A stretch of 64,000 bases of DNA from an archaeon (GTDB taxonomy: Archaea > AGJL01 > Methanococci > Methanococcales > Methanocaldococcaceae), in assembly GCA_024278985.1 (NCBI GenBank), contig JAJRSC010000015.1, forward strand, positions 1-64,000. The letters are read 5' to 3'. Under the pieces are notes generated by a model that saw only the letters and a list, made by a program, of their open reading frames with translations, did not search any database and was not told the DNA's origin. Below are positions 45,171 to 49,418 of this stretch, piece by piece (the first letter of the stretch is position 1; the number at the start of each line of letters is the position of its first letter). Position numbers and translations under genes: made by a program.

Positions 45171-45468
45171 TCATTTCACCTAAAATAAAAATTGTTATCT
45201 CTATATTTTTAAGCTTAAAATAATATTTAAAAATTAAGAATTTTATGGAATTTATAAGAAACAATAAAAAATATTAGCAAAAATATTTAATATTAATTAA
45301 TAGACTCAAAAGTTAAAATAAGACAACTATAAAATTAGTAAAATCACATATATTATTATAAATTATTAACATGTTTTTGTTTTAGGTTATATATAAAAGA
45401 GGATATTTTAGCAATGTATAAAGTAAGAAAAAATAACTATTTTTAAAATGATATTATCAGTGGTTGGT

Positions 45469-45846
45469 ATGGAAAATGAAAAAAATAGCTTAATAAAACT
45501 CTTTTGGATATTTCTTAGTGTATTTTTAGTATTAATAATATTATCAATATCTGAATGGATGTATATAAATATAAGAATATATAATTATATAAAGATTACT
45601 TTTTTGATAGTTGGGATAACAATTAGTGCAATAATTGTAGAATATATAATCCAATATAATATTTTTGAAAATAAAGGTGAGTTATCAAATATAGGGATTA
45701 ATATAATATATTTAGCAATAGGTTATATTATATTTTCTCCAATAACTTTTGGAAATAAACTTATTATGATAGTTACTATACTTATTATTATATGCTTGCT
45801 TAGACATAATGATTATTTAAATTTTAAAAACATACTAAAAAAGTAA
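45469..45846 (+). CDS. small 4-TM membrane protein (possible orphan immunity gene)
   Basis: Four hydrophobic segments; GGTTGGT before ATG 45469; first gene of the island. Confidence 0.6.
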   Translation: MENEKNSLIKLFWIFLSVFLVLIILSISEWMYINIRIYNYIKITFLIVGITISAIIVEYIIQYNIFENKGELSNIGINIIYLAIGYIIFSPITFGNKLIMIVTILIIICLLRHNDYLNFKNILKK

Positions 45847-45860
45847 TAATACACTTAATA

Positions 45861-46045
45861 ATGTGAAATCATAAAAAAACGAAGAGTTGTTATTGATTAT
45901 GGACTTTTAAAGGCTATGGAAGAAGTTGAGGATGAGGAGGAGATTGATAGAAACTGCTAAAAAGTTGTTAGAGTATTGAGGTAATGGAAGTATCTTTTAA
46001 AAATCTTTTATTAAAGATTTAACTTAAAAATATCCAGGGAAAGAT
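45861..46045 (+). pseudogene. decayed RelBE-type toxin-antitoxin remnant
   Basis: Fragments IDYGLLKAMEEVEDEEEIDR/TAKKLLE then GAGGT-ATG MEVSF(K)/SFIKDL, all frameshifted and truncated. Confidence 0.55.
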
Positions 46046-46070
46046 AAAATAATTTACTATTATAAATTAC

Positions 46071-46292
46071 TTTACTTTTTTATAACTATTAAAAATCTTA
46101 ATAGGTAAAATATTTCCTTTTTATGCTTTACTATTCGATTAAAATCGTAATATATAGGGGTTTTGTTATTATTATTTAATGAAAAATGTAAAAAATAAAA
46201 CTTTAAAAAAGTAAAGAATAGTTGGCGATGATACCTCGGTATAGAGGCGGAGCCAATATTAAGGGACTACCCAACCACCATAGAGGTGGCAA
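46071..46292 (+). repeat. direct repeat copy 1: promoter plus structured 5' leader of the peptide cassette
   Basis: Aligns by eye with 48515-48740; the 3' ~140 bp is nearly identical. Confidence 0.9.
46217..46290 (+). promoter_or_regulatory. cis-regulatory RNA leader: kink-turn hairpin plus RBS-sequestering hairpin (copy 1)
   Basis: TTGGC-GAT-GA-TA-CCTC-loop-GAGG-CG-GA-GCCAA, then GGG-ACTA-CCC and CCACC-ATAGA-GGTGG covering the RBS. Confidence 0.7.
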
Positions 46293-46293
46293 A

Positions 46294-46605
46294 ATGAATA
46301 TATTTAAAAGTAACATACTTAAAGGTTTCGCTGCTTTGATAATATTAGGAATGGTAGGAGCTTTAGTTGCTGAGCCAGTGGCTTTGGGAAATTTAGGTAT
46401 AGTTTATGCAATAAAATCTTGGCATGAGGGAAATGTTAAGGGCTCTACAATTGGGGAAGGTTTAATGGATATAGGAAGTGCGGCTGTAACTGATGGCGTA
46501 GCTATATGGTTATCTGCTGAAGAAGCTTCCACAGTATTATTAGCAGCAGGTATAGCAACTGGCGGAGTAGCATTAGCGGCAGTAGGTACTACAGTTATGG
46601 CTTAA
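46294..46605 (+). CDS. bacteriocin/archaeocin-like precursor peptide 1 (103 aa)
   Basis: GAGGTGG RBS; signal-like N-terminus ending MVGALVAEPVALG; hydrophobic Gly/Ala C-terminus LLAAGIATGGVALAAVG. Confidence 0.7.
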   Translation: MNIFKSNILKGFAALIILGMVGALVAEPVALGNLGIVYAIKSWHEGNVKGSTIGEGLMDIGSAAVTDGVAIWLSAEEASTVLLAAGIATGGVALAAVGTTVMA

Positions 46606-46662
46606 TAATTCTTATTTTCCTTTTTATTTATTTTCATAAATAACTTTATTTAATGTGATATT

Positions 46663-46944
46663 ATGCCGGATCTAATTATCATGCTATGGGTATTAACAAT
46701 ATTTCTTTCATTAATTGAGATTATACTATGGTATCGTTTATTGAAATTGGCTCCAAAAGAAAAAATGAATATATTGGTTAAATGTTTAGGATTAGGTGTA
46801 TTATTTGCTGTAGTAAAACATTTGTTATTTAATGACTACACTGTTATTTCAATTATTAAAGACATTACTTTATATTCTGTTATCTTTATGTCCATATTGT
46901 TTTCATATTATAAATTTATAATAAAAAGAGTATGGCATGTTTAG
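46663..46944 (+). CDS. small 3-TM basic protein, putative immunity for peptide 1
   Basis: Directly follows peptide 1; GTGA RBS; hydrophobic and Lys-rich. Confidence 0.6.
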   Translation: MPDLIIMLWVLTIFLSLIEIILWYRLLKLAPKEKMNILVKCLGLGVLFAVVKHLLFNDYTVISIIKDITLYSVIFMSILFSYYKFIIKRVWHV

Positions 46945-47468: not shown

Positions 47469-47472
47469 AACC

Positions 47473-48007
47473 ATGAAAAAACTACCACCAATACTAACAA
47501 TATCTATTTTCATAATTGGTTTTATTCTAGGAGTTGTATCAATAAATAACTTATCAAAAATCAACAATAGTGATATACCTAACTTTAAACCTAAAATACA
47601 ATTTAATTTCCCTACAATCTTATTAAACAACTTAAAAGTTATCTTTTTAATGCTATCAGGAGCTATAACCTTCGGTTTATCCACTTTTATAAATCTACTA
47701 TTCAACGGTTTTAATGTTGGTATCTTAATCGGCTCTACATTCCTAACTAACGAACCGTTAAAATTAATAACCGCCTTAATCCTCCCACACGGCATATTCG
47801 AAATTCCAGCAATTATCAGCTACAGCGGGCTTTAAAATACCTTATGAAGTTATCCAATACCTAAGGGATAAAAAAGAAAAACCAATAACAGAGGAAGATA
47901 TAAAAGAATTCTTAAAACTATCTTTAATCTCAATAATTTTGATTATTATAGCTGCTTTTGTTGAGGTTTATATAACCCCAAAAATAGCTAATTATCTGCT
48001 AACATAA
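47473..48007 (+). pseudogene. SpoIIM/DUF95-family membrane protein, frameshifted near 47810-47820
   Basis: ILLNNLKV, NGF.VG, ILPHGIFEIPA, then in the shifted frame SATAGFKIP...IIAAFVEVYITP. Confidence 0.85.
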
Positions 48008-48066
48008 GATTTAAATAGATAATTGAGGAATAGGAATAATGAAACTAAAGATTAGGTGATTTAAAA

Positions 48067-48279
48067 ATGAAGACTGTCAAATTTAGGGTTTATTATGATG
48101 GGGAATATTGGATTGCAGAGGGTATTGATGTAAGCATATTCACACAGGGGAAAACTTTAGATGAATTGATGAAAAATCTTAAAGAGGCTGTTGAATTGCA
48201 CTTTGAAGATGAGTTAAAAGCTGGGGAGGTTATAAAAATCCTTTCTGTTTCTGAGATGGAGGTGTCAAGTGTTGCCTAA
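48067..48279 (+). CDS. hicB: HicB-family antitoxin (short form)
   Basis: Y....W.A.....IFTQGKTLDELM.NL.EAVEL. Confidence 0.85.
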   Translation: MKTVKFRVYYDGEYWIAEGIDVSIFTQGKTLDELMKNLKEAVELHFEDELKAGEVIKILSVSEMEVSSVA

Positions 48280-48514
48280 ACTTCCAGTTGTTAGTGGCAA
48301 GGACTTAATAAAATTTCTTAAAAAATTAGGTTATGAAGTCGTTAGGCAGAGAGGGAGTCATGTGAGATTAAGAAAAGAGACGGAATTTGGAATTCACAAT
48401 ATAACAATCCCTTATCATGAAGAGATAGCAAAAGGAACTTTAAACGCTATTTTAACCGACATTTCTAAATGGAACAACATTTCAAAGGAAGAGTTAATAA
48501 AAAAATTAAAGTAA
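48272..48514 (+). CDS. hicA: HicA-family mRNA interferase toxin
   Basis: LP.VSG..LIK.L...G....RQRGSH..L, IP.H.EI.KGTL..IL. Confidence 0.9.
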   Translation: MPKLPVVSGKDLIKFLKKLGYEVVRQRGSHVRLRKETEFGIHNITIPYHEEIAKGTLNAILTDISKWNNISKEELIKKLK

Positions 48515-48740
48515 TTTACTTTTTTATAATTATTAAAAATTCTAATGAGGAACATATTTCCTTTTTTTATACTTTACTATTTGATTAAAATCGTTATATA
48601 TATAGGGGTTTTGTTATTATTATTTAATGAAAAATGTAGAAAATAAAACTTTAAAAAATTAAAGAATAGTTGGCGATGATGCCTCGGTATAGAGGCGGAG
48701 CCAATATTAAGGGACTACCCAACCACCATAGAGGTGGCAA
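48515..48740 (+). repeat. direct repeat copy 2: promoter plus structured 5' leader of the peptide cassette
   Basis: Matches 46071-46292; begins immediately after the hicA stop codon. Confidence 0.9.
48665..48738 (+). promoter_or_regulatory. cis-regulatory RNA leader: kink-turn hairpin plus RBS-sequestering hairpin (copy 2)
   Basis: TTGGC-GAT-GA-TGCCTC-GGTATA-GAGGCG-GA-GCCAA; its one difference from copy 1 gives a G-C pair in the NC stem. Confidence 0.7.
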
Positions 48741-48741
48741 T

Positions 48742-49041
48742 ATGAAATTTTTAGAGAAGGGAGTATATAAGATTTTCGGAGCTATGGTTTTAGTAAGCAT
48801 GGTAGGAGCTTTAATTGCTGAGCCAGTGGCTTTGGGAGATATTGGATACTATGCAGGAAAAGAATTGGCAGGAGAATCAGGAAGTGTTGTAGAAAGTTAT
48901 CTCGGAACAAAAGCTGGAGAATATGCTGGTGAAAATGCGGCTATATTATTGGCAGAATTATTTGCTGAGGAAGGAGCAGAAGCAGGAACTATTGCAGGAC
49001 CTATCGGTATGGTAGTTGGAGGTATAGCTGGAGCACTATAA
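48742..49041 (+). CDS. bacteriocin/archaeocin-like precursor peptide 2 (99 aa)
   Basis: Same leader; MVGALIAEPVALGDIG; C-terminal glycine zipper AGTIAGPIGMVVGGIAGAL. Confidence 0.7.
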   Translation: MKFLEKGVYKIFGAMVLVSMVGALIAEPVALGDIGYYAGKELAGESGSVVESYLGTKAGEYAGENAAILLAELFAEEGAEAGTIAGPIGMVVGGIAGAL

Positions 49042-49094
49042 ATTCTTCTTTTTATATATTTTTATATATTTAAACTTTTTATGGGGTGATTAAA

Positions 49095-49418
49095 ATGGCA
49101 AACACTTGGGTGATTGTTAGTTTTATAATAGTATATGCATTATTAGTTCCATGGGTTGTTAATTGGATACTTCTAAAAAGGAAAATTAATTTTTTAAAAT
49201 CTTTACATTATTTTGAGAAAAAATTCAGCATTAAAGAAAAAATTTTTATAACAATTATTGAACTCATTCCAGTATTTTTCTTTTTATACTCATATATTCA
49301 AATGAGTAGAAATTTGTCTATATTATATGGTATATTTTATTTATGTTTAGGTATTTTGGTTGTCTTTCTATTAGATTACATATTAAAGACGACGTTTATT
49401 AAATATAAGAACCAATAA
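49095..49418 (+). CDS. small 3-TM basic protein, putative immunity for peptide 2
   Basis: GGGGTGA RBS before ATG 49095; three hydrophobic segments; follows peptide 2. Confidence 0.6.
   Translation: MANTWVIVSFIIVYALLVPWVVNWILLKRKINFLKSLHYFEKKFSIKEKIFITIIELIPVFFFLYSYIQMSRNLSILYGIFYLCLGILVVFLLDYILKTTFIKYKNQ

Follow-up and report, generated by a model that had tools for sequence, protein, structure and literature searches.

The stretch of DNA analysed here (the window) comprises 64,000 nucleotides of contig JAJRSC010000015.1 (assembly GCA_024278985.1) from a Methanocaldococcus-like archaeon and carries on the plus strand, at positions 45448-49418, an island of small peptide and membrane protein genes. 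The best explanation for this island is that it is a partly decayed copy of an array of polymorphic peptide–partner cassettes, which is specific to the Methanococci. A cassette consists of a conserved upstream region, a gene for a glycine- and alanine-rich peptide of about 100 amino acids (aa) and a gene for a small cationic multi-transmembrane (TM) protein, called the partner in the following. It is a firm observation that a given type of peptide tail is accompanied by a TM protein of its own, encoded downstream, and that this pairing persists where the genus and the N-terminus differ. In addition, the peptide genes are preceded by a kink-turn (K-turn) leader, a well-supported and previously uncatalogued RNA which is probably cis-regulatory.

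Conserved heads, variable tails and their partners

Both intact peptides of the window (Table 1) contain the motif MVGAL(V/I)AEPVALG, which had already been pointed out in an earlier note on this DNA; their tails are different and the overall identity is 36%. The fraction of glycine plus alanine is 0.32 in peptide 1 and 0.35 in peptide 2, and the net charges are -3 and -7, respectively. In an alignment of 32 distinct peptides, the column entropy is approximately 1 bit in columns 1-33 and 2.5-3.3 bits behind them; a conserved N-terminal part and a hypervariable C-terminal part are parted by a junction motif. The head has a short charged start, which is followed by a hydrophobic stretch, then by a motif of small residues and by (E/T)PVALGD, and it is most likely a Sec-type signal-like segment which ends in the PVALGD junction. 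The tails of about 65 aa fall into 19 clusters among the 32 peptides (E<1e-10).

To describe the mature parts, cleavage after the conserved alanine was assumed, a site which is inferred. With this assumption, the net charge is zero or below in 49 of 60 mature parts (median -3), and 47 of 60 end in a hydrophobic stretch of 22 residues with much glycine and alanine. A minority possesses longer tails without a glycine zipper, which end in ...GLYW or ...ALIW (P0024, P0032, P0036; L046:8632-9012(-); L084:3764-4105(-)). These members may work differently from the hydrophobic-tailed majority.

Family members were found in 16 of 40 Methanococcales genomes when a single protein was used and in 17 of 40 with a profile; none occurred in the seven genomes whose genus was inferred as Methanococcus. 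Beyond these 40 genomes, the known spread rests on a pattern scan of species genomes, which yielded 5 family loci, all from Methanococci, and on 43 clusters at E<=1e-3 among the 1.84 billion representatives of a cluster library, which add more tail types. In all three sources, homologues were seen in Methanococci only. Apart from the protein of the window itself, a word-index protein search returned a single hypothetical protein, Metin_1317 of Methanocaldococcus infernus ME, which is the only named member; Methanocaldococcus sp. 28A is another carrier of the family. The genes of the family form tandem arrays with up to 5-7 copies. The tail type of peptide 1 was not found elsewhere.

The tail and the first downstream open reading frame (ORF) were compared all-vs-all in 496 peptide pairs (E<1e-10). 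Both the tail and the downstream ORF were alike in 12 pairs, only the tail in 3, only the downstream ORF in 0 and neither of them in 481; a looser table of pairs at E<1e-3 was blurred by compositional matches. Several of the concordant pairs come from close relatives and are possibly plain orthologous loci. Three concordant pairs cross the border between genera, and in two of these three the module of tail and partner is conserved as much as the head or more. Peptide 2 and its counterpart in genome G038, which belongs to another genus and has an N-terminus of a different subtype, share 60% identical residues in the tail (E 3e-23), 38% in the partner (E 3e-21) and 48% in the head. For G026 and G006 these values are 78%, 71% and 45%. 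Furthermore, the partner of peptide 2 is 55% identical to the partner of the same tail type in G039, and the partner of peptide 1 did not resemble those that belong to other tail types. Of 32 partners examined, 30 carry a positive net charge. The downstream gene behaves as a cognate gene that co-varies with the tail, with exceptions that are considered below.

A structured leader RNA with K-turn and Shine-Dalgarno hairpins

The upstream regions of the two cassettes form a direct repeat, with 97% identity over 149 nt between 46150-46298 and 48598-48746 (spacing 2448) and 92% in the longer comparison of 46060-46300 with 48507-48746. Further copies were not found in the 1.1-Mb assembly, where other matches were short (E 2e-4 or worse). 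The GC-rich 75 nt before each ATG fold with -25.4 kcal/mol, compared to -15.6 +/- 3.0 kcal/mol in shuffled sequences (z-score -3.2). Two hairpins are formed. The first one comprises a UUGGC/GCCAA stem, a GAU bulge, tandem G.A/A.G pairs and a second stem, and contains the parts of a K-turn motif, namely a canonical (C) helix, a 3-nt bulge, tandem sheared G.A/A.G pairs and a non-canonical (NC) helix. In the small second one, CCACC pairs with the GGUGG Shine-Dalgarno (SD) sequence.

A pattern scan for the leader gave 49 candidate strings, 36 of the K-turn type and 13 unrelated A/T-rich or coding matches; 31 of the 36 were aligned, and the five omitted ones differ in flanking bases only. The GAUGA...GA core with the GAU bulge is invariant in 31 of 31 aligned hairpins, and the inner stem, of which at least seven sequence versions were seen, is able to pair in all of them. 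Altogether 92.6% of the hairpin cells are paired, versus 28-44% when the partner strand is slid. Compensatory changes affect four pairs of the NC stem and one pair of the C stem, with 50 cells changed on both sides, and the covariation score was reached by 0 of 500 shuffles; the rows of this alignment are relatives, and the changes do not represent independent events. The pattern of the hairpin is firmly that of a box C/D-like K-turn.

A scan of positions 45000-50000 against Rfam gave no family at E<=10. A covariance model of the hairpin matched in 18 of the 40 Methanococcales genomes and in the window genome only at the two cassette sites (E 1.6e-11 at 46219-46259 and 7.5e-13 at 48667-48707). 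Outside the arrays, seven of seven inspected matches lie upstream of an ORF, and five of these seven ORFs possess the signal-like N-terminus of the family. One match (L078:8811) precedes an ORF without this N-terminus, and a match in the relative G003 precedes a partner-type TM gene without a peptide gene. The same combination of K-turn leader and signal-like N-terminus also heads secreted proteins of 240-335 aa in G026, G039, G016 and G007 (L078:4207-5085, L079:6338-7150(-), L080:2520-3398(-), L081:3227-3952, L082:3417-4424). These proteins belong to no known family and are followed by several multi-TM genes, with no SpoIIM gene adjacent. An AlphaFold model of a 292-aa representative is beta-rich with a predicted local distance difference test (pLDDT) score of 55, and a Foldseek search with it against the PDB gave no match at E<=0.001 (TM-scores <=0.2).

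The hairpin that masks the SD sequence is kept in most relatives, in shifted or compensated form (by eye; CUCC/GGAG, UCACC/GGUGA). An alignment with MAFFT was inconsistent with the structure, and pairing probabilities of single sequences were used in place of a pair count. At 65 C the predicted probability that the SD sequence is paired is 0.52, versus 0.24 in 104 control leaders, the sequences being related; the support for this hairpin is moderate. In several species the leader K-turns occur in tandem (L016:18-93, L018/L044, L042:11213-11293, L019, L024), whereas the window has one per cassette. The second K-turn of a tandem sometimes shows the exact consensus of box C (GUGAUGA) and box D (CUGA).

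The earlier note had recognised the repeat as a conserved leader. The repeat itself (92-97% identity) stands, and it is better described as an untranslated, structured RNA of the 5' untranslated region (UTR) than as a translated frame. Leader ORFs starting with TTG at 46222 and 48670 were rejected, because reverse-strand ORFs are equally open and the conservation of the leader is accounted for by RNA pairing. A C/D-box guide small RNA was rejected as well, since guide spacers are missing and the boxes flank a helix, and so was a riboswitch of a known class, for which an Rfam match is absent.

The A/T-rich part of the upstream region presumably serves as promoter and operator. A recurrent box, TGAAAAATGT(A/G)(A/G)AAAATAA, lies 5' of the K-turn at 46180-46200 and 48628-48648 and also in several Methanocaldococcus cassettes; it may be part of the operator or promoter. 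TATA-like boxes were ambiguous by eye, and it is not claimed that the K-turn stands at the 5' end of the transcript. T-rich tracts (TTCTT..TTTT..) were seen by eye between the peptide and partner genes at 46606-46662 and 49042-49085. These could be archaeal oligo-T terminators, which would raise transcription of the peptide over that of the partner.

The protein L7Ae binds K-turns in 5' UTRs of archaeal mRNAs and represses their translation (Daume et al. 2017, PMC5539422). Genes of the L7Ae family were found in the window genome, and translation of the peptides is probably restrained by L7Ae on the K-turn together with the masking of the SD sequence. Like the K-turns reported in that study, the element is C/D-box-like, with GAUGA on the bulged strand and GA on the other one, and is placed in the 5' UTR near the SD sequence. 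In contrast to the K-turns reported there, it caps a stable covarying hairpin that stands 5' of another, SD-masking one, is in some cases present twice in a row and heads a family of genes for exported proteins instead of l7ae; its regulation by L7Ae is a prediction.

The island of the window and its SpoIIM and transporter genes

The array contains two intact cassettes with a decayed peptide gene, a SpoIIM/DUF95 gene and HicBA genes between them (Table 1). Its neighbours on one side are kor-type genes (Fer4 protein, POR_N, TPP_enzyme_C), and on the other side a gene for an IMPDH protein with CBS domains (guaB) follows. In 15 congeners neither kor nor PCNA genes occur beside guaB; the gene order is not conserved there, and this comparison does not inform on the status of the island as an insertion.

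Table 1. Features of the peptide–partner array, with positions in the window.
Feature	Position	Strand	Description
Orphan partner-type membrane gene	45448-45846	+	132 aa, 4 TM-like segments, net charge +3, no peptide gene ahead
Conserved upstream region, cassette 1	46060-46218	+	A/T-rich; direct repeat with 48507-48666, 85-97% identity
K-turn-type hairpin, 5' UTR of peptide 1	46219-46259	+	C stem, GAU bulge, tandem G.A/A.G, variable NC stem
SD-masking hairpin	46275-46293	+	CCACC pairs with GGUGG SD directly before ATG; minimum free energy structure
Peptide 1	46294-46605	+	103 aa; signal-peptide-like N-terminus, AEPVALGN junction, Gly/Ala-rich hydrophobic end
Partner (immunity-like) membrane gene of peptide 1	46663-46944	+	93 aa, 3 TM-like segments, +5
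Displaced orphan peptide tail	46932-47190	+	junction AELLDLGD at start; without signal peptide or leader; one frameshift
Small cationic 2-TM gene	47265-47468	+	67 aa, +8; 3' of orphan tail
Island-type SpoIIM/DUF95 gene	47473-48007	+	PF01944 in two pieces; broken by frameshift
HicB-like antitoxin (48067-48279) and HicA toxin (48269-48514)	48067-48514	+	lodged within the array
Second copy of upstream region, with K-turn hairpin (48667-48707) and SD hairpin	48507-48741	+	
Peptide 2	48742-49041	+	99 aa; AEPVALGD head, strongly anionic tail, GxxxG-type pattern throughout
Partner (immunity-like) membrane gene of peptide 2	49086-49418	+	110 aa, 3 TM-like segments, +9

The earlier note had described an island of repeated units between kor-type genes and guaB, and all its parts were found again. 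This holds true for the small hydrophobic cationic genes next to the peptides, which have three TM-like segments and co-vary with the tails, for a SpoIIM/DUF95 gene and a third, orphan peptide between the cassettes, and for the lack of an ATP-binding cassette (ABC) ATPase within the island. The HicB/HicA pair and a fourth TM gene (45448-45846) are parts of the array which are added here to that description.

The orphan peptide is real, headless and frameshifted. Positions 46932-47066 match residues 23-65 of a full-length relative with 72% identity and positions 47071-47187, in another frame, match its residues 72-106 with 89%, which places the apparent frameshift near 47062-47072. The orphan tail begins exactly at the degenerate junction AELLDLGD, and this junction remnant (repeat family D4) recurs at 46369, 46944 and 48817. 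Displaced modules without an N-terminal part thus comprise this tail and the two orphan partner-type genes at 45448-45846 and 47265-47468. The protein of the former matched no Pfam or NCBIfam family; it is 29% identical (E 3e-11) to a TM protein encoded behind another peptide type in G004 (L040:10851-11228). The latter gene shows 63% identity to an orphan TM gene of the same genome. This arrangement might have arisen by recombination at the conserved head, which would have brought in peptide 1 with its partner as a new module and left behind the headless tail; the SpoIIM gene of the displaced cassette would then have decayed together with the orphan tail.

The HicA gene product matched HicA_toxin (PF07927) at 5.1e-18, and the HicB-like family scores are at or below the cut-offs. 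Both genes overlap at 48269-48279, and a match to PHROG 353 was obtained (2.9e-13). An identical HicB-like ORF (70/70 residues, by eye) is present in the array of the relative G039 (L045:4907-5119), where it sits between an island-type SpoIIM gene and a family peptide at 5594. The HicAB pair is unrelated to the cassettes and lodged in the array.

The SpoIIM gene of the island showed two matches to PF01944 in two frames (1.8e-18, 47473-47835; 1.2e-5, 47834-48007), with an apparent frameshift near 47812-47816 (by eye) and one TAA within the protein match; intact island-type relatives have about 180 aa. For 26 of 32 family peptides, the 2.3 kb that follow the peptide gene include a SpoIIM-like ORF. 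Among 23 full-length island SpoIIM proteins, 19 belong to one cluster (>=65% identity), and the median identity across different tails is 65%. Because this one cluster sits behind 13 tail clusters, SpoIIM is a generic part of the arrays, unlike the partners. More than one PF01944 match occurred in 16 of 17 peptide-positive versus 4 of 23 peptide-negative genomes; the latter four comprise a remnant array in G003 and three weak second matches. This remnant array (L083, G003:C1:1283000-1292000) contains a K-turn-like hairpin, a partner-type TM gene, several SpoIIM copies (one of them truncated), Yip1, a gene for a protein of about 500 aa and an ABC transporter; a profile search found no peptide gene in it. 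Of the 40 Methanococcales genomes, 39 carry a longer housekeeping SpoIIM without a peptide nearby; DUF95 is therefore also a housekeeping protein, apart from the arrays. In the window genome this copy is intact (G000:C21:6635-7120, L087:1390-2010) and lies between the genes for 3-hydroxy-3-methylglutaryl coenzyme A reductase and hisD.

Complete arrays of the relatives end with genes for a Yip1 protein (2e-30), a secreted protein of about 500 aa without known family, ABC_tran (9e-39) and an FtsX/MacB_PCD permease (FtsX 3e-23, MacB_PCD 6e-11). The Yip1 protein weakly resembles YknW_fam (1.2e-7, below the cut-off). The association of the peptides with SpoIIM, ABC and small TM genes, which the earlier note had proposed to check, was thus observed, with the ABC genes at the ends of the arrays; the opposite picture, conservation of the peptides along their full length and without linkage to SpoIIM or TM genes, was not seen. 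On another contig of the window genome there is a different MacB-type module, beside which a 29%-identical relative of the 500-aa gene is located. The FtsX/MacB-type permease of that module is split into two ORFs of 250 and 120 aa (L090:7550-8737, G000:C19), which may be due to a frameshift or an assembly error. The array copy in the window seems to have degenerated in part: an intact island SpoIIM and a linked transporter are missing, although two peptide–partner pairs appear intact.

Possible function and comparison with known systems

Polymorphic toxin–immunity loci such as CdiA-CT/CdiI and Rhs combine a conserved N-terminus, a junction motif, a hypervariable C-terminus, a downstream immunity gene and orphan modules. 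The arrays resemble them in the conserved head, the junction, the variable tail, the cognate downstream gene, the headless orphans and the exchange of modules between lineages. They differ in that the whole protein has only about 100 aa, that the tails are of a membrane type instead of enzymatic domains, that a dedicated delivery filament or type V/VI secretion is missing and that the partners are integral membrane proteins. Judged solely from architecture and gene content, the arrays could well represent a polymorphic toxin–immunity (bacteriocin-like) system, and we regard the chances for and against this as about equal. The peptide would be exported and its signal removed; the tail would damage membranes by inserting into them, either those of competing relatives or the producer's own, and the cognate TM protein would shield the producer. 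As in the circular-bacteriocin clusters of bacteria, SpoIIM, Yip1 and the ABC transporter might help to mature or export the peptide or to protect its producer. Recombination at the conserved head and junction would bring in new modules of tail and partner, and older tails would be displaced as headless orphans.

Two further bacterial systems offer partial parallels. CdzC/CdzD of Caulobacter are glycine-zipper, contact-dependent bacteriocins, which are exported by type I secretion and for which a multi-TM immunity protein exists. Small glycine-zipper proteins with a multi-TM immunity-type protein are also found here, but detectable homology of the peptides is lacking. YknWXYZ of Bacillus subtilis is a four-part transporter of Yip1 and MacB type, which protects against SdpC; the array ends likewise encode a Yip1 and MacB-type transporter, with the difference that the similarity to YknW stays below the family cut-off.

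Several observations weigh against a toxin–immunity function. The tail type at L040:9192 and L041:5259 is common to both loci (E 4e-20), and the downstream genes are unrelated (E 1.6). Likewise, the gene behind the orphan tail is unlike the partner of that tail type in G004 (E 3.2). The compared genomes are those of relatives, and the counts do not represent independent events. Anionic mature parts prevail, which is unusual for membrane-active peptides. Neither a bacteriocin nor a toxin family was matched by the peptides in Pfam and NCBIfam, and a profile search of the PDB with the peptides gave 0 matches at E<=10. The AlphaFold model of peptide 2, which was based on a family alignment of 31 rows, is unreliable (pLDDT 54.1, predicted template modelling score 0.27). 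A signal-like N-terminus with a C-terminal hydrophobic segment would fit a resident protein with one or two TM segments equally well. Since the K-turn leader and the signal also head proteins of 240-335 aa, the head is not specific for bacteriocins. Finally, the only island-type SpoIIM of the window genome is broken, and neither Yip1 nor a linked ABC module was found in the assembly of this genome (1.1 Mb, 86% complete).

Some of these observations would suit the main alternative, non-toxic polymorphic complexes of peptide, partner and SpoIIM in the membrane or at the surface, which would act in self/non-self recognition, masking of virus receptors or membrane-associated defence. Their diversity would then result from arms races with viruses or from kin discrimination and not from killing. 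Resident membrane proteins would have just such termini, co-varying partners are equally expected of subunits of one complex, and both the anionic character of the peptides and the use of the same head by larger secreted proteins agree with it. Moreover, 'novel membrane-associated defense systems' were proposed for the DUF95 islands by Makarova et al. (2014, PMC4158269). Nevertheless, we consider this explanation rather unlikely: swapping of tail–partner modules across genera is not expected of a structural complex, and headless orphan tails together with a content of Yip1, MacB-type ABC and DUF95 genes are hallmarks of toxin–immunity or bacteriocin loci. In addition, a comparison of the island proteins with the PADLOC defence families gave only a sub-threshold HicA match, and PHROG matches were restricted to HicAB.

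The proposal of the earlier note that the locus is circular-bacteriocin-like has to be divided. The linkage to DUF95 and the presence of Yip1 and a MacB-type ABC transporter in the relatives agree with it, but a match to a bacteriocin family is missing. Nearly all circular-bacteriocin clusters encode a SpoIIM/DUF95 protein, and their immunity proteins possess two or three TM segments (PMC7132975). An ATP-binding (ABC) protein in the cluster serves as a criterion for such loci (PMC8534725), and an ABC transporter with an FtsX-type permease as well as, in cerecyclin, a YIP1 protein are described (PMC7132975, PMC8534725). In the window, the precursor-type gene lies beside a SpoIIM gene, whose copy is frameshifted, and an ABC gene is absent from the island and present at the array ends of the relatives. 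As in the described clusters of AS-48, leucocyclicin Q and cerecyclin, there are small precursor-sized peptide genes, sometimes several with their own promoters, and, in the complete arrays of the relatives, the same set of DUF95/SpoIIM, a small immunity-type gene with two or three TM segments next to the precursor, ABC and FtsX-type permease and YIP1 (cerecyclin). In contrast to these clusters, the peptides here are without sequence similarity to them, large proteins also carry the Sec-like head, anionic tails predominate, each cassette has one SpoIIM and the host is an archaeon. Many modular tail types each have their own partner here, whereas one immunity gene per multi-precursor cluster is given in the account of Vezina et al. 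(PMC7132975).

If the peptides were archaeal circular bacteriocins, the exported tail (54-75 aa after ALGD) would be joined head-to-tail by a DUF95-dependent machinery. Circular bacteriocins typically have 58-70 aa, and the length of the core behind the junction is within this range; one of 61 aa has been described (PMC11409674). Variability starts exactly behind ALGD, as expected of a boundary between leader and core, and the relatives hold a minimal set of a precursor-sized peptide, DUF95, an ATP-binding protein, a small immunity-like TM gene and YIP1. Even so, circularisation appears improbable. No sequence similarity of the peptides to any such family was detected in Pfam, NCBIfam or PDB sequences, and because the AlphaFold model is unusable, the fold and the closeness of the termini cannot be inferred. 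The ATPase of the relatives is part of the MacB/FtsX-type transporter at the array ends and not a stand-alone partner of DUF95, DUF95 alone is no sign of cyclisation, as the housekeeping copies without a nearby peptide demonstrate, and the head resembles an ordinary Sec signal common to large proteins.

It was also considered whether the peptides are structural proteins (pilin, archaellin-like, S-layer-associated or virion) or stress proteins with a glycine zipper like YmgE/GlsB, so that the array would consist of fast-evolving paralogues. The only Pfam match of the peptides at E<=1 was a sub-threshold one to Transgly_assoc (E 0.019, 15.6 bits versus a cut-off of 25.3), and the ESM Atlas, with scores of at most 0.83 that are leads only, pointed to glycine-zipper clusters (0.77). 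Class III signal peptides carry glycine or alanine at position -1 of the prepilin-peptidase site before a hydrophobic stretch, and the N-termini of the peptides often show K-G in front of theirs. However, the position of the cleavage glycine is variable (G, V, I, S or C in the alignment), genes for a prepilin peptidase and an assembly ATPase are absent from the arrays, and the peptides had no match in PHROG. Subunits are normally conserved over their full length, which does not apply to the peptides, and cognate partner genes and orphan tails would be left unexplained. This explanation is therefore regarded as highly improbable.

The earlier note had also stated that no such system is known in Methanococcales. 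This has to be restricted, as Makarova et al. (2014, PMC4158269) already flagged DUF95 (arCOG01996) islands of Methanococcales with variable membrane proteins and an adjoining ABC transporter of a SalXY-like, antimicrobial-peptide type. Membrane-associated defence or transport of antimicrobial peptides was suggested for these 'dark matter' islands (PMC4158269), and the arrays described here are the same kind of locus. The peptides, the division into head and tail, the co-variation of tail and partner, the orphans and the RNA leader go beyond the main-text account given there. In the literature searched, no paper was found that describes the peptides, the modular design or the K-turn leader, and neither was a characterised peptide toxin–immunity system in Methanococcales.

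Very little work exists on antagonism between methanogens or other hyperthermophilic archaea. If the toxin–immunity function applies, the arrays would provide a naturally occurring collection of thermostable, membrane-active tails of at least 19 types, each with a matching protector, and a compact, genetically tractable model, for which Methanococcus maripaludis, from a genus without the family, is a possible host. The link between archaeal and bacterial DUF95, Yip1 and ABC genes could then help to explain the role of DUF95 proteins. In its most specific and distinctly improbable form, a glycine-zipper core of about 65 aa, processed by the Sec pathway or at the junction and cyclised and exported via DUF95, Yip1 and the MacB-type ABC transporter, would kill neighbouring Methanococci without the cognate immunity and would be gated by L7Ae and the K-turn. 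These peptides would then be the first archaeal relatives, by their machinery, of the circular bacteriocins, and the gating would tie toxin synthesis to the ribosome and L7Ae status of the cell. Independent of what the proteins do, the K-turn leader would mean that translational control by L7Ae is not confined to the l7ae gene but also reaches a family of genes for exported proteins.

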